This document shows, one piece after another, positions 1,666 through 58,874 of a stretch of 64,000 nt of DNA (position 1 is its first letter; each line of letters starts with the position of its first letter). Location of the stretch: IMG/VR virus record IMGVR_UViG_2917886563_000007. One strand, given 5' to 3'. A program made the position numbers and the translations under genes. A model generated the notes under the pieces. It was not told the DNA's origin, did no database searches, and saw only the letters and a list, made by a program, of their open reading frames with translations. The stretch is from a virus. Its lineage: Duplodnaviria; Heunggongvirae; Uroviricota; Caudoviricetes.

Positions 1666-1939
1666 CTCAACTCCGCTGAAAAGTAAAACATAAAACGGTA
1701 AAACCAAATGGTTTTACCGTTTAAAAGGAAATGTTCAGGGGAATGATATATATCTTAATGTTTTTAGAATGGATTCATATATGATGTTGATCTTATTCAA
1801 GATATCCTAGAGTATCATTCTGTTGATAACATATTGAATTTGGTTAAAATAATTGAGCCTGATATCCCTTTTTACTGAATTTCAAGAGGTATTGGGTTGT
1901 GTTCGTTCGCCCAATTCTATTGATGACAAGGAAAAGCAA

Positions 1940-4900
1940 ATGGTTAGTAGCCAGTATCCCCGGGGTTCAGAATGGCATAAGTGGGATTTACATATTCACA
2001 CTCCAGCATCTTTTCATTGGAATGGCCCGAGATTTAAGTCAGATCCACGCTCACCAGAGAACGCCCCACTAGTGGATGCAATGATCAATGCTATGAATGC
2101 AGCAGAACCAATCGCATTTGCGATTATGGATTATTGGACCTTTGATGGATGGTTTGCGTTAAAACATCGATTGACGCAAGAAGATGCCCCCAAGCTAGAA
2201 AAAACCGTTTTTCCTGGAATTGAATTGCGGTTGATGGCGCCAATGCGTGGAAGGCTAAATGCTCACGTTCTTTTTTCTGATCATATACCAGATCAGGAGC
2301 TTATTGATTTCAAGAGTAAACTAGAGGTTGCTCTAATAAATAAGTCATTATCAGATTCAGCCTTAATCCAAATAGCTAGGGAGGCTGCACCAGATAAATT
2401 GCGGCATCATAGTCTCAACCAACAAAAGATTCTTCAATCTGATGCTGATGCTCTCAAGGCTGGTTCAATAATAGCCGAGGTTACATGTGAGAGTTATCAA
2501 AAAGCAATTAACAGTGTCAGCAAAAATCAAGCTATTGGGTACATGCCATTTGATACCAATGATGGGCTTACTGAAATTGAGCGTAACGCGCATTATGCAT
2601 TCGCATTAACTCTTTTCAAGACATCACCAATATTTGAAACAAGGGATTATGCTACGTGGGCAGCTTTCGCTGGTGTAAAGGTCCCTGAAAATGAAAGGTG
2701 GTTTGATGCTTTTCAAAAGGCTTTAAATAATAAACCTAGACTTGCTATTTCAGGGAGTGATGCTCACTGCTTTGTTGGAGAACCTGGTAACAATGATCGC
2801 CGAGGATATGGTGACTACCCTTCAGGAAAGGCAACATGGATAAAGGCTAATCCAACATTTGACGGATTAATGCAAGCAATAAGAGAACCAGCAAAACGTT
2901 CATTTATTGGTGCTATTCCTAAAAAACGGAAATTAGTAAGCGAAAACAGAAGTCTATTTATTGAAAAGCTAGAAGTTAAAAAATCAATTGATTCATCAAT
3001 CAATGAATCCTGGCTCGACAATACGGATATACATTTAAATCACGATTTAGTCGCTATTATTGGTAATAAAGGTAGTGGTAAAAGTGCATTGGCTGATATT
3101 GCAGCGTTGCTTGGTAACTCTAAACAAAGTCATCATTTTTCCTTCCTAAAGGAAAATCGATTTAGAGGAAAAACAGGTGAGCCAGCACGTCACTTCAATG
3201 CAAAAATAGTATGGAGTGATGAAAAAGAGTTAACAAAAAACCTTAATGATAATCCAGCAACTGAAAATGTTGAATTAATAAAATACATTCCACAAGGCCA
3301 TTTTGAAGAGTTGTGTAATGCTCATGTATCGGGCCAATCAGATGCATTTGAAAAAGAACTAAGATCTGTAATCTTCTCACATGCAGATGAATCTATACGC
3401 TTAGGTGCTCATGATTTTGAAGATCTGATAGAAAAGCAGGAGAGCTCTCTTCGAAGCCAACTAGAAAGCTATCGTAGTGAGATGCATAAACTCAATGAAC
3501 AAGTAATGTTTATTGAGAGCCAAATGACCGATGAAGCAAAAAAAGCACTTGATGAAATGTTGGCTCAAAAAGTTAGATTACTGGAAGAGTTGATCAAAGC
3601 AAAGCCAGAAGAAGTTCCTGAACCATCTAATGAGCTTACACAGGAACAACAACAAATATCTGAACAGCTATCAAACATCAATCAAGAATTAGAAAAGTTA
3701 CAGAAGCAGCAAGAATCAGACCTAGAAGAACTTACAAAGTTAGCCGGAAAGAGAAAAGCAAGCAAGAATATTAAGGCTGGTTTTGAAATCGTCAAACGTG
3801 CAGTTAATCAATTTGTGTCAGAGTTTGATTCAGATGCTAAACTCCTTGGTTTGGATATAGAGAGTTTAGTTAGAGTTGATGTTGATGAAAAAACTCTCTC
3901 TGCATTAGACGATGCTGGTTCACTTCGTGAAAAAGAAATCAAAGAACGTCAATTAACCCAAGTGGCTAGTAAACAATTAATTTTGGAGAAAAAAGCTCCA
4001 CTAAATGCACAGTTGAATGCCCCACAACAAGCATACCAGTTGTTTAAAGAACAGCTCAAAGCTTGGGGTGAGAAACATGCAGCATTATTAGGAAACAAAG
4101 ATGATCCAGATACACTCGAAGGTATCAAGCATAGAATATCTAAACTGGAGCAACTTCCAAGTCAACGATTAGAATTACATGAGAAACGAAACGATTTGAC
4201 TCGAAAAATTTTTACAATTCTTAATGAGCAAAAAGAGAATCGTGAAACCCTTTTCGAACCAGTACAATCACTTATTCAAAATAATATTCTTATCCGTGAT
4301 GAATACAAACTACAATTTAGAGCTGAACTAAGTAGCACTGCAGATCTAATTTCAAATAGATTATTTTCCATTGTTAAGCAAGCGTCGGGTGAATTTAGGG
4401 GCGAATCAGAGAGTCTTTCAGTAATTAAAGACCTTATGGATCGACATGATTTAAATGACCAAGAATCTTTACTCATGTTTGTCCAGGAATTGCACAGAAA
4501 ACTAGAGAGTTCTTCTAAGAATCCAGTTGGTGTAGCTTCATTGTTACGCAAAGATCGTACAGCTAATGAAGTTTATGACCTTATTTTTGGCTTAGAGTAC
4601 CTTGAGCCAAGATATACATTAATGTTTCAAGATGCTCAAATAGGACAATTGTCTCCTGGACAAAGAGGGGCCTTACTTCTGATTTTCTATCTGCTTGTGG
4701 ATAAAGGAAATACACCAATAATTCTGGACCAGCCTGAAGAGAATCTTGACAATGAAACTATTGTTAGCCTGCTTGTACCTGTTTTAACGGAAGCAAAGCA
4801 AAAACGACAGATTATTATGGTTACACATAATCCGAATCTTGCAGTTGTTTGTGATGCAGAGCAAATTATCCATTGTGAGTTTGATCGCACAAAGGGGCAC

Positions 4901-5014
4901 AAAATAACATATACCCCAGGAGCTATTGAGTGTAGCGTAATTAATAACAAAGTGGTTGATGTTCTTGAAGGAACTATGCCTGCATTTGATAATCGTAGAA
5001 TGAAGTATATGTGA
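1940..5014 (+). CDS. PHP-domain phosphoesterase fused to SbcC/Rad50/OLD-like ABC ATPase with central coiled coil; candidate single-gene defence nuclease
   Basis: ORF track starts at a TTG at 1853; more likely start is ATG 1940 after an aagga RBS. PHP motifs DLHIHT (1985-2002) and GSDAH (2753-2767); Walker A GNKGSGKS (3062-3085); Lys/Glu/Gln-rich heptad-like region about 3400-4300; ABC signature LSPGQRG (4649-4669); Walker B IILDQPEENLD (4718-4750); H-loop VTHN (about 4820-4831). Visibly AT-rich. Confidence 0.75.
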   Translation: MVSSQYPRGSEWHKWDLHIHTPASFHWNGPRFKSDPRSPENAPLVDAMINAMNAAEPIAFAIMDYWTFDGWFALKHRLTQEDAPKLEKTVFPGIELRLMAPMRGRLNAHVLFSDHIPDQELIDFKSKLEVALINKSLSDSALIQIAREAAPDKLRHHSLNQQKILQSDADALKAGSIIAEVTCESYQKAINSVSKNQAIGYMPFDTNDGLTEIERNAHYAFALTLFKTSPIFETRDYATWAAFAGVKVPENERWFDAFQKALNNKPRLAISGSDAHCFVGEPGNNDRRGYGDYPSGKATWIKANPTFDGLMQAIREPAKRSFIGAIPKKRKLVSENRSLFIEKLEVKKSIDSSINESWLDNTDIHLNHDLVAIIGNKGSGKSALADIAALLGNSKQSHHFSFLKENRFRGKTGEPARHFNAKIVWSDEKELTKNLNDNPATENVELIKYIPQGHFEELCNAHVSGQSDAFEKELRSVIFSHADESIRLGAHDFEDLIEKQESSLRSQLESYRSEMHKLNEQVMFIESQMTDEAKKALDEMLAQKVRLLEELIKAKPEEVPEPSNELTQEQQQISEQLSNINQELEKLQKQQESDLEELTKLAGKRKASKNIKAGFEIVKRAVNQFVSEFDSDAKLLGLDIESLVRVDVDEKTLSALDDAGSLREKEIKERQLTQVASKQLILEKKAPLNAQLNAPQQAYQLFKEQLKAWGEKHAALLGNKDDPDTLEGIKHRISKLEQLPSQRLELHEKRNDLTRKIFTILNEQKENRETLFEPVQSLIQNNILIRDEYKLQFRAELSSTADLISNRLFSIVKQASGEFRGESESLSVIKDLMDRHDLNDQESLLMFVQELHRKLESSSKNPVGVASLLRKDRTANEVYDLIFGLEYLEPRYTLMFQDAQIGQLSPGQRGALLLIFYLLVDKGNTPIILDQPEENLDNETIVSLLVPVLTEAKQKRQIIMVTHNPNLAVVCDAEQIIHCEFDRTKGHKITYTPGAIECSVINNKVVDVLEGTMPAFDNRRMKYM

Positions 5015-8334: not shown

Positions 8335-9651
8335 TCAACACTCGATTTTTTCATAAATAGAGGCCTGTTCTAAGATCCAGCTCTCAATTTTTTCATGCCA
8401 TTTACGCAACAAATCTAATGGACGACGACGGTAGTGTTTCTCAGCTAGAGCACTAGGTTTATGGCCCATAATCTGCGCAACTATGCCAGTTGGCACTTCG
8501 ACCCATTCGGCGAGCGTACCAAAACTACGACGTAATCCATGCAGGCTGATGTGTGGTAATTCAGCCTTAGCTAAGGCCCGATTGTGTGCGGAACGCGGTT
8601 CAATAATTTTGCCGCTTTTGCTATTACTCCTGAAAACCCAATCCTCCTTATTTACGTCAGAATTTGGTGTTTGCACCAATGCGCGTAACAGGTGAGTGAC
8701 ATAAGGAGTAAGAGGTATGATACGTTCGCCTTCGATCTTGTCTTTAATCCGCATACTTGACCATTTGAAATCGACGTCAGACCACCGAAGTGACGCAATT
8801 TCTTCGCGTCGCGCTCCGGTGAGTAAAAGTACCTGGAGATAGGCCGATGCAATGGGATTGTTGAGGTTACGCACGGCACTGAACCAGCTTTTTAACTGTT
8901 CTTTTTGTAAGCAATCTCCCGCTTTACTCGCTGATACTGGAACCAATTTTCTCACGTTATGATCTTGTGCAAGATCGCCATGGATTATTCCCTGATATTT
9001 TTTCTGGTAATTAACCCATTTGATAAATGCACGCAACAGACGGTAGGCATGAGCAGTGACGGTAGGCCGATTTTGTCTTTCTGTACTTAGCCATGCGGCA
9101 ATGTTCTCTGGTGTTAGTTCCGATAACGGTAGGTCGAGCAAGCTAGCCAATGGTCCAGCCGAGGTTGGGCCCCGGCCTCTTTTTTTACTTTCTCCTCCAC
9201 GGCTGGACAAGTTCACGTGATCGGCAATATAACGTGCAGAGTAAGGACGTTTAGTTTTTGCGCTGATTCCGGTTCTCAATTCTTGAAGATAATCTTCCCA
9301 AGCGCTTGAGAAGGTTACCTTCGTTTTACGAGATTCAGCCTGCTGTGATTCCGCTTCAGCAATTTTTTCTGCTTTAGCTATACGCGGATCTATCCCAGTA
9401 TCGATTAATGTTTGCAGCCGCCTGGCTTCGGCCCTGGCATCATCAATCCTCCAATCGTTAATGTTGCCAATGGTCATGCGAAGGGTTTTTCCCGCATATA
9501 CGCTTTGGAACACAAAAGCTTTTGTTCCGCGAGTTGCCCGGCATGCCAGAGTTGTTACATCCGCATCCCAAAGAAATGCTTGGTTTTTCCCTTCAGTTAA
9601 AGCAAATTTTCGAATACGCTCGAAGGTGAGTTTTTGTCTCGGAAGTGCCAT
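8335..9651 (-). CDS. int: P4-type tyrosine integrase
   Basis: Likely start MALPRQKLTFERI at 9651; C-terminal tyrosine-recombinase motifs (ARREE, HGLRRSF, GHK...Y); adjacent to a tRNA-Thr 3' fragment. Confidence 0.9.
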   Translation of the reverse strand: MALPRQKLTFERIRKFALTEGKNQAFLWDADVTTLACRATRGTKAFVFQSVYAGKTLRMTIGNINDWRIDDARAEARRLQTLIDTGIDPRIAKAEKIAEAESQQAESRKTKVTFSSAWEDYLQELRTGISAKTKRPYSARYIADHVNLSSRGGESKKRGRGPTSAGPLASLLDLPLSELTPENIAAWLSTERQNRPTVTAHAYRLLRAFIKWVNYQKKYQGIIHGDLAQDHNVRKLVPVSASKAGDCLQKEQLKSWFSAVRNLNNPIASAYLQVLLLTGARREEIASLRWSDVDFKWSSMRIKDKIEGERIIPLTPYVTHLLRALVQTPNSDVNKEDWVFRSNSKSGKIIEPRSAHNRALAKAELPHISLHGLRRSFGTLAEWVEVPTGIVAQIMGHKPSALAEKHYRRRPLDLLRKWHEKIESWILEQASIYEKIEC

Positions 9652-9833
9652 TTTTGGGCTCCAGATGAGAAAGGTTACATCACCATAATGTAACGGCTGG
9701 TGTAAGTAAATTAGGGGAATACACATCAACACCTGTCAATTTTTATCAACAGGTGTGTTTTATAAGTTAATGTTTTATAATGAACTAATTGTTTTAAGAG
9801 TAGGTTTTTAAAGGGGTAAAAGTATAATAACGT

Positions 9834-9884
9834 CGCATTCGTAATGCGAAGGTCGTAGGTTCGACTCCTATTATCGGCACCATC
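9834..9884 (+). repeat. tRNA-Thr (thrW-type) 3' fragment; direct repeat, attL of lambdoid prophage and right-end repeat of the P4-like island
   Basis: cgcattcgtaatgcgaaggtcgtaggttcgactcctattatcggcacca matches the anticodon-to-CCA half of tRNA-Thr(CGU) as recalled; the upstream sequence does not match the 5' half, so not an intact gene. Confidence 0.8.
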
Positions 9885-9896
9885 TAAATCAATAAG

Positions 9897-11060
9897 TTAC
9901 ACATCATTAGTACCTTCCTTATTTTTTGACTGGGACAAATTTGGGACCGATGGGTTCAGGATCGAGTCTATTTGCCGTGCGTGTTCGGTAAGGTGATTAG
10001 GTGCAAGGTGAGCATATCGACGAACCATTTCGATAGACTCCCAGCCTCCCATTTCCTGTAACACTGACAACGGGACTCCGGCTTGAACCAGCCAACTTGC
10101 CCAGGTGTGTCTCAAGTCGTGAAATCTGAAATCATCAATACCAGCCCGTCTCAGCGCCGCTTTCCAGGCTGTGTTTGCGTCATACCGCATCTTCCTTACT
10201 GTTGGCGCTTTCGTTCCGTCTGGTTTGGTACAGCTTTCCTTGTACACAAATACCCAACGGTGATGATTCCCGATTTGTTTTTTCAATACGCGACATGCAG
10301 TATCATTCAGCGCAACGCCAATTGCGCGGTTTGATTTACTCTCTTCCGGGTTTATCCATGCCACCCGGCGCTGCATATCTATTTGTTGCCATTCAAGGTT
10401 GATGATGTTCGAGCGTCTTAAACCTGTTGCCAGTGCAAATTCAACAACAGACTTTAATGGCTCCGGACATTCATCAATCAGCCTTTGTGCTTCATGAGGC
10501 TCCAGCCAGCGGATCCGTTTATTCTTTGGTTGAGGCACTTTAATAATTGGTGCCTTATCCAGCATTTTCCATTCACGCTCTGCGGCTCTTAGCAGGGCCT
10601 TTATAAATGAAAGATGCGTTGCCTTCGTTGCAACGGACGCTGGTTTTGGCGTGTATTCTGGAACTGGTTTCCCTTTTTTTCTGCATGCTTCTGCCCTGAG
10701 TTTCCAGTTTTCCTCATGACGCCGGTTCGTCATTTTCTGCATTGCTGAATAAATTTTTGATTCAGTAATGTCTCTTAGTTGCATTCCTGCGAAATGTTGA
10801 AGCCAGAATCCGATCCGGCTTTTGTCATCGTCCAGTGATTTTTTATGTGCTTTCTCTTCGAGCCACCTGACACACGCCTCCTCGAACGTCATATCAGGTA
10901 TTTCACCAAGTTTGCTGACCCGCCATGCTTCAGCCTTTAGCTTGTCATGGAGCTCTGTCGCCTGCCTTTTGTCCTTTGTTCCAAGAGACTGTTTAAATCT
11001 TTTACCGTTCGGCAATGTGAAACTGGCGTACCATATTTCACCTCTGCGGAAGAGTGACAT
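9897..11060 (-). CDS. int: Phage tyrosine integrase, P22-type (thrW-specific)
   Basis: 387-aa protein [24 protein letters not shown]... close to P22 Int as recalled; stop lies 13 bp from the att repeat. Confidence 0.9.
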
Positions 11061-19808: not shown

Positions 19809-19904
19809 GGTTGACGATAACTAATATCTGGCGCTATATTCTGTGCGTTGCCGCAAAATCGGCACACGGGATTGGCGTCCCGGATAAGGTAATCGCGACT
19901 ACTA

Positions 19905-19928
19905 CACGCCGCGAGCGTGTTTTTTATT
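19905..19928 (+). terminator. Rho-independent terminator downstream of ren
   Basis: cacgc-cgcga-gcgtg hairpin followed by ttttttatt. Confidence 0.55.
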
Positions 19929-51158: not shown

Positions 51159-51454
51159 AAAGTCGCAGCAACTTGTCATGGCGGAATACTGCGGCTGGCT
51201 GGTGAGCTATCGATAGTGCGAGTATGGAATGATTTCCAGCCATTATAGATTTTACGTATTTTTTTGCATGAGAGGATTTGCACCACCTCCCACCGACCAT
51301 CTATGACTATACGCCACCATTTCTAGGGCTGCTATGTGCCAGAAGCGGACATTATGACAGCCAGGAAGCCCTTATCTGAACGAAAAAAATAATGTCGTTG
51401 GGATGGTTTACTTTACAATGTCAGTTTTAAACAGCCTACAAAACAGGTGATCAC

Positions 51455-52357
51455 GTGCATGCCAACATGATTGAATACCTAAATATTTTCATACAGGTTG
51501 TTGAGCAGGGTAGCTTCACTAAAGCTGCTGATGTACTTCAGATCCATCGCCCCACCGTGAGCAAAGCAATACAGCAGATAGAGCATGATCTGGGTGTAAA
51601 ACTCATTTATCGCACAACCCGAAAGCTGAGCGTTACTGCTGAAGGGGATGAGTTCTATCATCATGCCAGGCATGTCCTGGCCGAAGTTAATGACATGATG
51701 GCCAGTTTTTCACCGACTCTTCCACCGCGAGGACGCCTGAGACTTGATGTGCCCCTGGCGCTGGCGCATTCCATATTGATCCCTAATCTTAGGCATTTTC
51801 AGACACTGTATCCAGGTATTGAAGTTGTGCTGGTTTCTTCGGATAAAAAAACTGATTTGATCACGGAAGGCGTAGATTGCCTTATCCGCCTGGGTGCGCT
51901 TCAGGATTCTAGTTTTATATCCAGACGTCTTGGTGACATCCGGATGGTTACCTGTGCAGCCCCGTCTTACCTGCAGCAGCATGAGCGGCCAGAAACACTT
52001 GCGGATCTGGATAAACATCGGGCAATTAACTTTTTTAGCGACCACAGTCGTGACGTCATGGAATGGAAGTTTATCGAAAACGGGAGCATTGTTTCGCTAC
52101 GTCCTGCGGGCAGCCTGCTGGTTGATAATTCCGATATTCTGCTTTCCTGTGCTCTGGCTGGTCTGGGCATTATCCAAGCTACCTATGATGCCGTTGCTCC
52201 CCATATTGCTTCCGGCGCTCTTGAAGAGATTCTGCCGCAATACCCATCGGTGTCAAAGCCCGTGTCAGTGATGTATCCCGACAGGCGCTACCTTTCTCCA
52301 AAAGTGCGCGTCTTTATCGACTGGTTCAGTGATGTTCTGGCCACGCAGATCCGCTGA
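51455..52357 (+). CDS. LysR-family transcriptional regulator (cargo)
   Basis: N-terminal HTH IFIQVVEQGSFTKAADVLQIHRPTVSKAIQQIEHDLGVKLIYRTTRKLSVTAEG; start may be ATG 51467 rather than GTG 51455. Confidence 0.85.
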   Translation: MHANMIEYLNIFIQVVEQGSFTKAADVLQIHRPTVSKAIQQIEHDLGVKLIYRTTRKLSVTAEGDEFYHHARHVLAEVNDMMASFSPTLPPRGRLRLDVPLALAHSILIPNLRHFQTLYPGIEVVLVSSDKKTDLITEGVDCLIRLGALQDSSFISRRLGDIRMVTCAAPSYLQQHERPETLADLDKHRAINFFSDHSRDVMEWKFIENGSIVSLRPAGSLLVDNSDILLSCALAGLGIIQATYDAVAPHIASGALEEILPQYPSVSKPVSVMYPDRRYLSPKVRVFIDWFSDVLATQIR

Positions 52358-52506
52358 AGCAGGCGGATTGTTAATGGATAATTAATACTGAAGTTCCCTC
52401 TCAGCTATTTCTGGTGTGTTTGTAACAACGTAGATTGTTCACAAATGATTCGGGCATCCCTTCGGCATTATTCTGAAGGAGTGCCTTTAACTGAAGAGAG
52501 CTGAAT

Positions 52507-53499
52507 ATGTCTAAAGTTATTACCTTTAACCGTACCGGAGGCCCGGAAGTGCTGGAATTTGTTGATGTACAGGTGCCTGCGCCGACAGCGGGTGAAGTGC
52601 AGATCCGCGTACATGCGATAGGTATCAACCGTGCAGAAATCATGTACCGCAACGGCCAGTATGTTATTGAGCCGGAATTTCCGGCACGTCTTGGTTATGA
52701 AGCGGCTGGCGTTGTGCAGGCCGTAGGTGAGAATGTTGATGAGTTTACCATTGGAGATCTGGTCAGCGTTATCCCTTCATTTATGTTTAATGAATACGGT
52801 ATGTACGGTGAAGTGGTCAATGCACCTGTGCATGCTATCGTGAAGCATCCTGAAAACCTTTCTTTTGAGGAAGCCGCTGCAAGCTGGATGATGTATGTCA
52901 CCGCTTATGGTGCGCTGGTTGAATATGGCAATCTTCAGGCTGGTCAGAATGTTGTGATCCGCGCAGCATCAAGCAGCGTAGGTCTGGCTGCCATACAGAT
53001 AGCTAACATGCTGGGTGCAAACCCAATTGCACTCACTCGGACCTCTGAAAAAAGTGAAATGCTACTGAAAGCTGGCGCAGCTGCCGTCATTGCTACTGCA
53101 GAGCTGGATATGGTTGCTGAAATCAATCGAACAACAGATGGCGTAGGTGCCCATATTGTTTTTGATCCCGTCGGCGGGCCGGACGTGGCAAAACTGACGC
53201 AGGTGATGGCATCACAGGGCATGTTTTTCCAGTATGGCGCGCTCGATAGCCGTGACATGCTTGTGCCTGTATTTAATATTCTCGGTAAGCATCTCACTCT
53301 GCGTGGATATGAGCTGTTTGAAATCACGACTGATTCTGAAAAAATGGCGCGCGCAAAATCCTTCATAACAGAAGGCTTACGAGCTGGCAAACTGAAACCG
53401 GTCATCGATAAAACGTTCCCGTTCGAAGAGATTGCAGACGCCCAGCGCTATATGGAGGCCAATGGCCAGGTAGGCAAAATAGTCGTGACCGTTGAGTAA
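52507..53499 (+). CDS. Medium-chain dehydrogenase/reductase family quinone oxidoreductase-like protein (cargo)
   Basis: 330 aa; GroES-like N-terminal domain and nucleotide-binding motif AASSSVGLAAIQIA typical of NADPH:quinone reductase / zinc-type ADH superfamily. Confidence 0.8.
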   Translation: MSKVITFNRTGGPEVLEFVDVQVPAPTAGEVQIRVHAIGINRAEIMYRNGQYVIEPEFPARLGYEAAGVVQAVGENVDEFTIGDLVSVIPSFMFNEYGMYGEVVNAPVHAIVKHPENLSFEEAAASWMMYVTAYGALVEYGNLQAGQNVVIRAASSSVGLAAIQIANMLGANPIALTRTSEKSEMLLKAGAAAVIATAELDMVAEINRTTDGVGAHIVFDPVGGPDVAKLTQVMASQGMFFQYGALDSRDMLVPVFNILGKHLTLRGYELFEITTDSEKMARAKSFITEGLRAGKLKPVIDKTFPFEEIADAQRYMEANGQVGKIVVTVE

Positions 53500-53830
53500 T
53501 CCTTACCACAGCATTTTATAAATGAGCCTGGTGAAGCCTGGATATTATCCAGGCTTCGATGCAATGGCTCCGGCAGGTACTGCCTTCGATTTCCACGACT
53601 TGAAAATTAAATGTCCTTTTCTCGCTTAAAGGGGGACCTTCAGATCCAAGAGGCTGTCCGCTTGGTGCCAGGAGCGGACGTTACTAACGTGATGATGAGA
53701 TCATCTACGAGAAACAAGTCATATGGGATATATTTCCAATAGAATATGAAAGATTAAACCCTGACTGGAGTTCATCCATTATTTATTACAAGTGAGATTT
53801 TATACAAGAAAAAGGATAAATATTAATTTT

Positions 53831-54274
53831 TCAGAAACCTCTAAATTCATGTAATTTTGAAGATAGCTCTTCATTCTTTTTTATGAAGTCTAATAAATAC
53901 TCTTCAGTTATTATTATTTGATTTCCATCCTTATACTTAGTTGCTAACATCTGGTTATCATTATCTGATGAGATACCTTCCGGAGCGGTGATGCGAAAAC
54001 TATGCATTATTCTATTGCGGATAATGACAAGCTCTTCAAAAAGAGTAGCAATAGTATCGTCTGATTTTTTTGAAATGGTTTCTTTGATAGGGATTTTAAG
54101 CTGGCCAGAAGTTTTATCTATTAACGCATACCAGTTGTAACTTTCATCATCATCTTCCCTTAAAATATTTTCAATGATAAAACCATTGTTGGAGTTGAAA
54201 ACACAAACGGCAGTGCCAACAAGTTCTCTATATTTTTTTGACGGTAATGATTGGCGCGAAAAAACTTCATACAT
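53831..54274 (-). CDS. Hypothetical protein, attR-proximal AT-rich cluster (contains an Rx4H motif; HEPN-like?)
   Basis: 147-aa ORF with gaggg RBS; motif RNRIMH near the centre; AT-rich. Confidence 0.5.
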   Translation of the reverse strand: MYEVFSRQSLPSKKYRELVGTAVCVFNSNNGFIIENILREDDDESYNWYALIDKTSGQLKIPIKETISKKSDDTIATLFEELVIIRNRIMHSFRITAPEGISSDNDNQMLATKYKDGNQIIITEEYLLDFIKKNEELSSKLHEFRGF

Positions 54275-54439
54275 GATAATTTAACCCTCATGAAAGTAGG
54301 TGATAATATCAGAGTTGAACTCTGCTCCGGCAGTGGAGCGCAACCAAATTCGCAGCATTTTCAGTCCTATCCTAACTCTGCTCACTGTATGTCACAAGCG
54401 GAATTTAATAACATCAGGCTATCCCCTTAGCAGGACTGG

Positions 54440-54697
54440 TCACCAGTTATCTTTTGATAAATCAAGGGCTGCAGATTGAATCCATCGCTCATAGGCAGTT
54501 CCCAATTGCCCTATGCTTTGGATACCAGGGATATTCATTGTCAAAATAGCTTGATGGTTAACCTGTTTCGCCCCCCATAAATACCCATACTCTACGTACC
54601 CTCTGATTTTCAAAGCCCTACAAATTACTTCTTTTCTAAAAAAAGCATCAAGTTGAATGTTTTTTGTATAATTAAAGAGATGGTTCTCAGCATTCAT
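54440..54697 (-). CDS. Hypothetical protein; possibly the C-terminal part of a frameshifted gene continuous with 54687-55169
   Basis: 85-aa ORF whose ATG lies 11 nt inside the upstream ORF, just after an A7 (plus-strand T7) tract. Confidence 0.4.
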   Translation of the reverse strand: MNAENHLFNYTKNIQLDAFFRKEVICRALKIRGYVEYGYLWGAKQVNHQAILTMNIPGIQSIGQLGTAYERWIQSAALDLSKDNW

Positions 54698-55169
54698 CTC
54701 TATGAAGTCTTTTTTTATTTTGTATTACTGACAACACTTTCTCTTTATTTAACACTCTACCATAATACGAGGTTCCATCATTGCAGTGTGCGTATATCTC
54801 ATTGAAGTAAACGGATGCTCCTCGCCAATCAGCGAAGCTCAAGGACTCCCCGCTCAGGTGGTTATGATGCAATACAAAGTTAGGCCGATTACTGATTGAG
54901 TCCAGCAATGCTGAAGAGGGATTTGCTCGATTCTCTAGTTTTTCTGTACTGAATTCGAGTAGCGGACCTTTAGGGCAATGAAGTGAAGCAGAGTATTCCC
55001 AGCGTGCACACTCACCGGCTTCGACTAACAATAGTGCGGTTATTTGTTCTAAGTCAGTCATGTTTCTTAACATGCTTAGCTCCCATAGCTTATTGACTAA
55101 TGTATATCGGCAACACGACTCCACATCTTGAGATATCTCTTCATTTTTTGAATCCAGATGTGAGCACAA
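54687..55169 (-). CDS. Hypothetical protein with a divergent JAB/RadC-like HNH..S..D motif
   Basis: 160-aa ORF; motif LHHNHLSGESLSFAD with an upstream Glu (LLVEAGE); the match to JAMM/RadC is imperfect (one residue short). Confidence 0.4.
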   Translation of the reverse strand: MCSHLDSKNEEISQDVESCCRYTLVNKLWELSMLRNMTDLEQITALLLVEAGECARWEYSASLHCPKGPLLEFSTEKLENRANPSSALLDSISNRPNFVLHHNHLSGESLSFADWRGASVYFNEIYAHCNDGTSYYGRVLNKEKVLSVIQNKKRLHRDEC

Positions 55170-55508
55170 TCGTTTAGTTGCATCTTTATTACTTTTTTCA
55201 CACTAGGTATGTCAATTTATAACGAAATTTAAACTTCCGCTCTTCGCTCATAGCAGACATTCACTACAGTTATGGCAGAAAGGTATGCATGTTGGGTGTG
55301 GGGAAGTAGTGAAAGAAAAGAAGACTGCTGAGCCGTTTGTCGTCACGTTTATCTTCATTGGCTATGCGAGTCGTAATACAAGATGGGACAAAACTGAGAC
55401 ACATAAGGCCTCACAATGGCTTGCAAGGCTTTACATGTTTTGATGTGGTGGGACGTGTGAGCGCAGTGTTGATGGGGTAATGCTTTGAATTAGAATCGGA
55501 TTCTTATA

Positions 55509-55556
55509 ATTCGTAATGCGAAGGTCGTAGGTTCGACTCCTATTATCGGCACCATC
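55509..55556 (+). repeat. tRNA-Thr 3' fragment, second direct repeat (attR of lambdoid prophage)
   Basis: attcgtaatgcgaaggtcgtaggttcgactcctattatcggcaccatc repeats the 9834-9884 sequence; no tRNA 5' half upstream. Confidence 0.8.
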
Positions 55557-57656
55557 AAGAAAATCAATAACTTAGCTTAACTTCTCTAAGAAATTGTATC
55601 TTCTGTTATCACTTACAAACGCCTATACGTTGTTATGGGCTTTGGTAGTGTAACACGTATGGGCGAGTAGTTCCCAGGCTCAACCTCGTAACAAGTTCCT
55701 TTGAAGCTGGAAGACGTGCCACCGTCTCTAAACCTTCTACCAAAACTCTTAGCAAGATGTTCCACACCTGGCGCGGTGTCCAATGATGCTACACGTCGTG
55801 AGACGTTGCAGAGGATAAACAGGCTAAATGATGGGAAGAGTTTTAAGTGCAATAGTGGATTAAAGCCCACCTCTTCAAAACCTAACTTGATCGGGAAAGA
55901 ATCAAGCTCTAGCACGGTTTCGTCCACCGGAGTACAACGGGTGCCTGATAAGAGAAGAACTGCTAAGACTTCATAGCTTTTGTGAAAAAGCCCTTTTTAG
56001 TGGATACGCCTACGGCGCTTATTTTTTGGTATAACCATCAAAGGCGCTTTATGGCTCCTATTGTCTTGAAAATGTATCTTTACTTGTATTGTGTTTTATG
56101 CGTAGTCTCCCTGTGTAGTATGTAACTTGTTAATTTTCATATGAATACAGAGGCACACGATGAAAAACATTGCAGCTATAAAACGTAATAACCGCAAGAT
56201 TCACGCTCGTAAGTTCCTGTCTACGCCAGAAGGAAAAGCCTGGCTAGAGCGTAAACAGAGAGAGAACGAAGAAAGAAAACTCCTTAGTGAGTTGAAATGG
56301 CTTAGAGAGGATTTCTGAAAATCTCCAGAACGCAACAGGACGCATTCTAACGCTGTTTTCATTGCTTGGTATAGGAATGTACAGGTGATGTGTGTTTAAT
56401 GCGTCTGTGAGCTTGTTTTGTGCCTTATTTTGCATTTTCATAATGCAGAAGAGAACACGGAAAGCCTTAAAATTAATTATTGGGGTATTTAAGGCTATTT
56501 TCAGGGTATTTAAGGGTATTAAACTTGATTTAATTGATTAAAATATAAACAGATAGTTCTGTATCTTATTGATTTATAAGGTTGTTTTTAAATAAAGGTA
56601 AATAAAAAATAAATAGCCATAAATAGCTATAAATACATCTAAATACCTATATCCCTTCCCTTATGGCTAGATTGCGAGAAGTGCTTAACGCGATTTTCAG
56701 CGCCCCCCGATCTGGAAAATCCAGAATCCCCAAATATCAGCAAGGAATTTTCTTGCGTAATCAACATCGTTTTTACCTATTAAATCATTACACAGAAAGC
56801 CTTTCTGTAATGTCTCTCACTAAACTTTCACTAAACACGAGAATGATCGGTTTTATGTCGGATCAGATGCTAGAAACAGCACCACGTCTCACAAGGGCTG
56901 TAAGCGATGAAACCAGTGTTTATGCGGGTGCAGGTCAAAATATAGGCCAAAATCCATTTAACATAATAAACGTAATATGCACTAAGGAACACATAGAACG
57001 CCTTGAATTGATGTATCAGGGGAAAAGTGATGGATTTTTTACGTAGGAGCACGAGAGGGCTTATGTTGACTTTTGTATGCTATGAAATATAATTAAAGGT
57101 TTTTTTTGTTTTTATCGTGTGATGTAGTGGATTACACAGGGGAATAGATTAAATGGTGTTCTGTTTATACAGGTTTATTTGTTAGATCAACAATTTGGCA
57201 TTTCTAAACAGATGTTTGAACGTTGCCAAATGTCTTGACAACACAAGAAAAGGGCTTGCTATGCCACGCATTACACGAAATAAGGCTGTAAAAACAAAAT
57301 AAATTTTAAAATTTGCACAAACGAGAAAACTCGTTCAGAAACAAGCAGAACAATTTTTAGCCAACAATTTCTGATGGTGTGCTGTAAGCCGCATCACACA
57401 AGGTTTTGCGAAAGTGATGTAAAAGTGAAGAAAGTAAGAATTGCACTTTTAAGCTGCTTTTCATTGAATTTTTTAGTATGGAATTACACAGGGAATAGAG
57501 AGCATTATTCTATGATTTACACAGGGAATATAGGGGGATTATGGCACACACATAGAAAGGCATTACACAGGGTGAGTGCTATGTGATGATTGGTAGTAAC
57601 GGTAGGTCACTGTGAGCTACCCCCTATCAAGTCTAACAGGGGTTTATATGTAGTGG

Positions 57657-58874
<1,218 letters not shown>

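Follow-up and report, generated by a model that had tools for sequence, protein, structure and literature searches.

A mobile two-gene cassette pairing a RadC-like JAB protein with a HEPN-like protein at the end of a lambdoid prophage: a candidate abortive-infection module

The window analysed here is a 64,000-nucleotide stretch of viral DNA (Caudoviricetes; IMG/VR record IMGVR_UViG_2917886563_000007) that contains an AT-rich block of three minus-strand open reading frames (ORFs), at 53831-54274 (147 aa), 54440-54697 (85 aa) and 54687-55169 (160 aa). Comparison with related sequences resolves this block into a 1.6-kb two-gene cargo cassette located just inside attR, the right attachment site of a lambdoid prophage, in which a gene for a RadC-like JAB protein, frameshifted in this copy, precedes a gene for a minimal HEPN-like protein. 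This anatomy, namely two genes, a JAB fold, a HEPN-like protein and a mobile cassette, is very probably correct. The fuller proposal, that the cassette is a candidate abortive-infection module consisting of a latent HEPN RNase and a JAB accessory, defence role included, is an interpretation of the whole analysis that is advanced tentatively, with slightly less than even confidence. The features of the cassette and of the attachment sites are listed in Table 1.

Table 1. Positions of the cassette, its genes and predicted motifs, and the prophage attachment sites in the window.
Feature	Position	Strand	Remarks
Mobile cassette (JAB gene, 165-nt spacer, HEPN gene, short flanks; 1.6 kb)	53653..55231	-	Insertion relative to an E. 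coli prophage
JAB gene (~210 aa; predicted RadC-like JAB/JAMM fold and C-terminal helical domain)	54440..55073	-	+1 frameshift in this copy
Codons of the JAMM-like metal-binding motif H69-H-N-H72-LSGESLS79-FA-D82	54828..54869	-	Predicted
Codon of E26, upstream part of the JAMM-like motif	54996-54998	-	Invariant in the family
A7 homopolymer with extra A	54710..54716	-	A6 in 18/18 related loci
Spacer between the JAB and HEPN genes	54275..54439	-	165 nt, constant in all cassette copies
HEPN-like gene (147 aa, minimal, predicted RNase)	53831..54274	-	
Codons of R86-N-R-I-M-H91 (Rx4H motif)	54002..54019	-	Predicted catalytic site
attR core	55509..55556	+	48-bp repeat of tRNA-Thr-like 3' end
attL	9837-9884		Beside integrase; exact 48-bp partner of attR

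The limits of the cassette are defined by an empty site. The prophage of E. coli GDSC2BY4G occupies the same tRNA site, with the LysR and zinc alcohol dehydrogenase (zinc-ADH) genes present, and is homologous to the window over 51189-53652 and again over 55232-55567; between these segments, where the window has 53653-55231, it has 144 unrelated bp, leaving a clean empty site. The region from 53613/53656 to 55258/55272 shares 98.2% identity with loci of Citrobacter amalonaticus and Providencia and 90% with Pectobacterium; the flanks differ, and homology to these loci ends at both cassette edges. The cassette was found in at least nine different contexts at 90-98% identity, with gene order, strand and spacer constant (210 aa, 165 nt, 147 aa). 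It follows a type I restriction-modification (R-M) operon in one case and umuDC, at the end of a lambdoid prophage, in another; it adjoins Mrr (Mrr_cat) in a TrbL-bearing integrative and conjugative element (ICE), directly precedes the integrase of a P4-like satellite, has a GIY-YIG gene on one side and three dynamin-like genes on the other, and shares a CP4-57-like island with Antirestrict, RadC and CbeA. A partial integrase is its neighbour in a further context, and a Pectobacterium integrase island provides another. The cassette is therefore placed as defence-island and hotspot genes are, with known defence genes or hotspots of mobile genetic elements adjoining it. No terminal inverted or direct repeats were found at the cassette ends, and so it probably moves by recombination. 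In one Pectobacterium locus (L003:6651-7457), a divergent gene just upstream of the cassette has a 268-aa product in which an RNIIAH motif accompanies a weak RiboL-PSP-HEPN match (E 0.0016), such that this locus has two HEPN-like genes flanking the JAB gene.

An earlier reading of the window, made from the sequence alone, had placed the three ORFs correctly and regarded them as a cluster of three genes; there are in fact two. A single ~210-aa gene, unbroken in all relatives (P0121-P0138), is divided here into the 160-aa ORF, its N-terminal part, and the 85-aa ORF, its C-terminal part, and the relatives of the 160-aa ORF, which are 200-245 aa in length, run on directly into the sequence of the 85-aa ORF. 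At the split point the window reads ..VIQNKKRLHRDEC*, whereas the relatives read ..NKKDFIEMNAENHLF.., the difference arising from the extra A of the homopolymer in Table 1. The frameshift lies at about residue 120, where the JAB domain gives way to the C-terminal domain. Removal of one A yields a 210-aa protein that is 3 nt and 1 aa from the Citrobacter copy, which means that the extra A either arose by mutation very recently or is a sequencing error in the homopolymer. Only one assembly (GCA_004745245.1) records the same 85-aa product. Because the JAB gene is broken by the extra A, at most the HEPN half of the cassette is intact in the window. The TTG start of the 160-aa ORF (55169) is probably wrong, and sequence features point to the ATG at 55073-55071 as the real start: it is preceded by GGGAG, and the relatives begin MLR..

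The product of the first gene is predicted to have a RadC-like JAB (MPN) fold, as seen in the AlphaFold model of the intact relative P0122 (mean predicted local distance difference test score, pLDDT, 87.2), which is 83% identical to the two halves in the window (alignment A1). The HNH..S..D motif that had been likened to JAB and RadC domains is invariant or nearly so throughout the family: among 37 divergent members E26, H72 and D82 are invariant, H69, H70, N71, S77 and S79 are nearly so, and the HNH[L/P]SG core is typical of RadC. None of the predicted metal-binding and catalytic residues is missing. Residues ~110-210 constitute a helical domain with invariant positions of its own (FFRK, Y162, WG). 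The family is tiny: a search of 1.84 billion proteins gave 70 representatives at E <= 1e-3. At its farthest reach the homologous region forms the C-terminal domain of MuF-like head proteins, of a portal protein and of an LPD39 polyvalent protein, and two of these proteins carry weak RadC or Toxin-JAB1 matches over it. JAB domains of the RadC clade have been described in the setting of polyvalent proteins by Iyer et al., who proposed a role in nucleic-acid processing (PMC5512222).

The 147-aa protein encoded by the second gene belongs, with high likelihood, to the HEPN superfamily. The suggestion that its RNRIMH sequence is an Rx4H motif of the HEPN type agrees with the family alignment and the model. 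Across 39 HEPN-family sequences from several phyla R86, R88 and H91 are invariant and N87 is nearly invariant. The AlphaFold model (pLDDT 85.9) is a helical bundle with long helices at 13-40, 48-70, 74-90 and 124-145; residues 93-122, which follow the predicted catalytic His immediately, form a beta insert of three strands. The Rx4H motif straddles the end of modelled helix 74-90 (helix 3), and since the canonical HEPN arrangement has the motif at the helix 3 end (Anantharaman et al., PMC3710099), this position matches the canonical one. Pfam matches of the family are all sub-threshold but cluster on HEPN models, of several families (RiboL-PSP 14/39, Apea 10/39, Cthe2314 6/39; best E 3e-4 to 8e-4); the window protein itself scores 15.3 bits (E 0.019) against RiboL-PSP-HEPN (PF18735), below the 28.4-bit gathering threshold. 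Pfam, NCBIfam and PADLOC searches with the three ORFs as given returned one weak HEPN match only, and an AbiN match on the 85-aa fragment was dismissed as spurious. A Foldseek search of the model against the PDB returned no significant match, and sequence-profile searches of the PDB with both families gave nothing meaningful. The ending ..LHxFRG[FYH] is shared by nearly all members of the HEPN family (alignment A3), its R145 and G146, at the very C-terminus, being nearly invariant, and a conserved terminal RG-x beside a JAB-fold partner is curious.

The HEPN family is large and widely distributed. At E <= 1e-3 the 147-aa protein has at least 712 relatives (clusters), the 120 listed being 62-100% identical, and the window copy is 99% identical to widespread intact copies. 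A genome scan located the gene in Proteobacteria, Firmicutes, Bacteroidota, Actinobacteria, Saccharibacteria and Paceibacteria at 52-74% identity, and it is carried by 57 plasmids, pMRC01 among them, of which 41 are from Lactococcus. Between the Citrobacter and Pectobacterium copies the ratio of nonsynonymous to synonymous substitution rates (dN/dS) is ~0.19 for the HEPN gene and ~0.46 for the JAB gene, indicating that both cassette genes are under purifying selection; the 712 relatives and the low dN/dS identify these as real genes and not chance ORFs. Both proteins are absent from 50,697 sequenced phage genomes, and neither matches PHROGs. Nearly all relatives of the HEPN protein are named 'selenium binding protein' by NCBI, a name that was rejected as unsupported, no literature backing having been found for it.

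In Enterobacter hormaechei, an IMG/VR contig and a Joint Genome Institute (JGI) contig, the gene after a JAB relative, again in this order, encodes another kind of HEPN protein, of 255 aa. The JAB proteins of these pairs are 59-61% identical to P0122 (alignments A1/A2; 60% in L097). The 255-aa protein passes the PF18735 threshold (32.4 bits, E 1e-7), matches one phrog of unknown function and is also found alone in the P2 gpA-ogr hotspot. An hhalign comparison of the 147-aa family with the 255-aa family aligned the motif and the next strand and helix (E 0.003, probability 10%). In a metagenomic locus (L100:167-3163), a distant JAB-family gene lies ~830 nt downstream, on the same strand, of a gene for a 998-aa protein with a RelA/SpoT nucleotidyltransferase domain, with two short opposite-strand ORFs between them.

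The closest precedents for the HEPN protein are solo defence elements of prophages. HEPN Solo (HepS), from the Salmonella prophage Gifsy-1, is latent until a phage tail protein binds and adds to its beta-sheet (PMC13043305), and Tha of S. aureus prophages is a solo, trigger-activated HEPN defence (PMC11087260). In common with these, the 147-aa protein is small, bears a canonical Rx4-6H site, is prophage cargo, and has homologues from Bacillaceae to Enterobacteriaceae with no conserved partner gene; its beta insert after the catalytic His may be compared with the beta-sheet by which HepS binds its trigger. No sequence homology between HepS (PDB 9OIK) and the 147-aa protein was detectable. The best Pfam neighbour is RiboL-PSP-HEPN, a family whose distant relationship to AbiD/AbiF has been described (Anantharaman et al. 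2013, PMC3710099). In both, a short strand and then the last helix come after an R[NH]xIxH motif, and the alternative 255-aa partner is a true member; the window protein, however, is ~100 residues shorter than the 255-aa proteins and lacks both the L-PSP fusion and the ParB operon.

The JAB protein most resembles the RadC-like JAB proteins (PF04002) that include YeeS, YkfG and YfjY of E. coli cryptic prophages. The two share the JAMM fold and the HNH[PL]SG...S..D signature, prophages, ICEs and islands carry both, in many cases close to ArdC, antirestriction or toxin-antitoxin (TA) genes, and relatives are fused to MuF, portal or LPD domains. The window protein differs in its extra helical C-terminal domain of ~100 aa, as well as in the two respects, a lack of a Pfam match and a shorter metal-site loop, that are weighed below. 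As a two-gene module with an enzyme gene beside a minimal HEPN RNase, the cassette is comparable to HEPN-MNT (HepT/MntA, type VII TA), which provides a precedent for enzymatic control of HEPN activity. In the cassette, however, the partner is a JAB-fold hydrolase and not a nucleotidyltransferase, the pairing is non-obligate and the HEPN family is another one. The cassette also differs from the defence systems with JAB peptidases, namely the Bil and Bub ubiquitin-like operons and, with Cap3, the cyclic oligonucleotide-based antiphage signalling system (CBASS), as no E1, E2 or ubiquitin-like genes are present in any cassette copy. The RadC clade is thought to lack the groove for the ubiquitin tail (PMC5512222).

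By analogy with HepS and Tha, the HEPN protein of the proposed abortive-infection module would be made constitutively and kept inactive in oligomeric form. The trigger would come from an invading phage or another mobile element, perhaps through contact with the beta insert beside H91, after which the protein would cleave RNA (tRNA, rRNA or mRNA) independently of metal, which would lead to growth arrest, a halt in the replication of the invader, abortive infection or loss of the invader. The JAB protein would be an optional enzymatic accessory that tunes, senses for or resets the HEPN RNase, and not an indispensable antitoxin. RNase activity, trigger, targets, defence role and contact between the JAB and HEPN proteins are here inferred. 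A stronger version, in which the JAB protein is the true enzymatic partner of a solo HEPN RNase and the two form a new kind of two-gene immune module, is unlikely. The JAB hydrolase might then gate the HEPN protein, for example by processing the conserved C-terminal ..FRG[FY] tail, or alternatively might process RNA ends or nucleotides. Apart from this, the 147-aa family would be among the most widely transferred of known single-gene RNase defences, at 52-74% identity across at least five phyla.

Several observations weigh against the proposed module. The JAB gene is upstream of the HEPN gene in only 2 of 80 genome loci spanning more than five phyla, and the other 78 lack it. Clustering of the neighbours in 83 HEPN loci revealed no conserved partner, the commonest neighbours being integrases (9 loci) and XRE-type regulators (7 loci). 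A Yersinia HEPN gene that is 89% identical to that of the window lacks the JAB gene, with homology limited to window 53659-54379, so that ~105 nt of the spacer nearest the HEPN gene moves with it. JAB relatives, in turn, occur without any HEPN gene: at prophage ends they lie between SRAP and umuC, and in other loci they follow BstA or an ArdC-like gene. The surroundings are also ambiguous: the HEPN gene lies beside ArdC in pMRC01 (L142) and Holdemanella (L078-L081) and the JAB gene after ArdC-N/MPTase in Rahnella (L005-L007), all in conjugative elements, and these neighbours, together with the fusion of JAB relatives to MuF, portal and polyvalent proteins, fit an offensive or establishment role just as well. 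The JAB motif, E...HxHx6Sx2D (E26, H70xH72, S79, D82), has a loop one residue shorter than the JAMM motif HxHx7Sx2D, and the family has no Pfam, NCBIfam, PHROG or PADLOC model match, the Pfam JAB and RadC (PF04002) models included. Finally, a search of PADLOC-DB 2.0 (2023), a kind of scan that the sequence-only reading had proposed, gave no credible match for the split ORFs, the intact JAB protein or the 147-aa or 255-aa HEPN proteins, and the case for defence is thus drawn from context alone. In the Yersinia enterocolitica locus (L137:2217-3706), the HEPN gene follows an overlapping pair of genes for 140-aa and 356-aa proteins with no Pfam match, which could be an alternative partner set; when tested against the JAB profile, neither was related to the JAB family.

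Much of this evidence would be expected if the two genes were independent neighbouring cargo, a self-sufficient solo HEPN beside an unrelated RadC-like JAB with its own role in DNA or RNA processing, joined once in a lineage of Enterobacterales and hitch-hiking together since. The solo HEPN and JAB loci, the Yersinia segment, the room for separate promoters in the 165-nt gap and the survival of an intact HEPN gene beside a broken JAB gene are all in keeping with it. It does not readily account for the retention of order, strand and exact spacer through at least nine relocations at 90-98% identity, or for the independent pairing of a JAB relative, in the same order, with a different HEPN family, and it is considered rather doubtful. 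A less probable explanation again is that both proteins serve the element in establishment or counter-defence, directed at the recipient cell or at rival elements, as polyvalent-protein domains are believed to do. The JAB relatives within MuF-like, portal and LPD39 proteins, a class discussed in PMC5512222, the ArdC neighbours and the 41 Lactococcus plasmids suggest such a role, whereas the cassette is also present in resident, non-transferring sites and defence hotspots (P4-like satellite, R-M, prophage ends), both proteins are missing from the phage genomes searched, and the solo JAB and HEPN proteins carry no packaging or secretion domain.

A TA addiction module, in which the HEPN protein is a constitutively toxic RNase and the upstream JAB protein a type II-like protein antitoxin that stabilises the element, was one of the two functions suggested from the sequence alone, and is very improbable. 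The antitoxin-first order, small size and mobile-element location favour it. RadC-like JAB genes generally precede CbeA/CbtA-type modules in CP4-57-like islands, and this arrangement was seen in L117 and L120. HEPN toxins are, moreover, common among TA systems (PMC7641770). The supposed toxin, however, is nearly always without its JAB antitoxin, the antitoxin is frameshifted in the window and the toxin is not, no structured RNA or small ORF is conserved beside solo HEPN copies, and PADLOC, which includes TA-type defence proteins, gave no match. The obligate co-occurrence of toxin and antitoxin seen in type II and type VII systems was not observed, each gene being found alone even among close relatives. 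Because the HEPN gene is mostly solo, the JAB gene often solo and the HEPN gene intact beside a broken JAB gene, classical TA dependence is unlikely. Of the two suggested functions, abortive infection is the one tentatively preferred. The sequence-only reading was largely right about the folds and about a module, and conservation of the block as a unit holds for its arrangement, identical in at least nine contexts, but not as obligate pairing. The least probable of the alternatives is that the window copy is a decaying remnant with no current function. Its +1 frameshift is unique to the window sequence and the region is a mosaic with an integrase remnant, an IS3 element and tRNA fragments; against this, there is a single lesion that could be a homopolymer sequencing error, the repaired JAB protein is 1 aa from intact copies, the HEPN protein is nearly identical to widespread intact copies, and the downstream half keeps a native ATG overlapping the premature stop.

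HEPN-based conflict modules on mobile elements are already well known as a kind, whereas neither the JAB-HEPN pair nor either family is described in PADLOC 2.0, Pfam, NCBIfam, PHROGs or the searchable literature. Should the cassette prove protective against phages or plasmids, it would be a compact module with a partner domain apparently unreported with HEPN. HEPN RNases recur as abortive-infection effectors, and the solo proteins HepS and Tha have been understood only recently. The 147-aa proteins constitute a large misnamed family, of at least 712 clusters from Proteobacteria to Saccharibacteria and on many plasmids, for which neither Pfam nor PADLOC has a model. RadC-like JAB proteins, though ubiquitous among mobile elements, have no known activity, and a two-gene cassette with a readable output, be it RNase activity or toxicity, would offer a tractable assay; the JAB partnership, if true, would be the first biochemical role for the RadC clade. 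For annotation, two apparent 'hypothetical proteins' in the window are one frameshifted gene.

The spacer and its surroundings were scanned for RNA elements and promoters. Rfam gave no match at E <= 1 within 53500-55600, and the spacer folds no better than shuffled sequence (z = -0.04). An RNA antitoxin, of type III or AbiF/RCd22-like, was rejected on the absence of an Rfam match, a stable fold and repeats near the HEPN gene. Promoter-like sites are not above shuffled frequency, with none in the spacer on the coding strand, and six terminator-like sites were observed against 1.3 expected.

The AT-richness and the position next to attR that had been reported for the block are both borne out. 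The GC content of 53656-55260 is 0.374, compared with 0.48 for the whole window, and is among the lowest ~10% of windows of equal size; that of the 147-aa gene is 0.327 and that of the neighbouring LysR/zinc-ADH genes 0.488. The attachment sites are a 48-bp exact direct repeat corresponding to the 3' part of a tRNA-Thr-like gene, and a tyrosine integrase is encoded at 9897-11060 (Phage_integrase domain, E 5e-48). This repeat pair beside an integrase gives a prophage span of ~9.8-55.6 kb, with the end of the block ~250 bp inside attR. ARAGORN found no intact tRNA in the window, despite the tRNA-Thr-like repeat. An icd-type attachment site, first suspected from a phage-21 match at 55232-55400, was discarded, as the real att repeat is the tRNA-Thr-like 3' end. 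A second integrase, of P4 type (465 aa, Arm-DNA-bind_3; 8335-9732), lies immediately outside attL, suggesting tandem islands at one tRNA site.

The segment from the cassette to attR (55232-55567) has 87-93% identical sequence in 1486 of 5426 complete E. coli genomes. It also has counterparts near attP/int in phage 21 and lambda hybrids, mostly without annotation; the phage 21 counterpart overlaps 'putative membrane protein' and CII-site annotations. The chromosomal window ORF at 1853-5014 (3.1 kb) has no megablast match among the 5,426 complete E. coli genomes, so the host is not E. coli, even though NCBI assigns to E. coli a HEPN protein (P0001) identical to that of the window. Within the prophage, at 19849-20035 and 24600-24992, Rfam gathering-level matches to isrK, C4 antisense RNA and a cspA-type thermoregulator form a Gifsy-like set. 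Just outside attR, at 57657-58831, ORFs of 275 aa and 103 aa resemble an IS3-family element; the translation of the 275-aa ORF, by eye, looks like a transposase, and the matching assembly annotates an rve-family transposase ~3 kb from the cassette.

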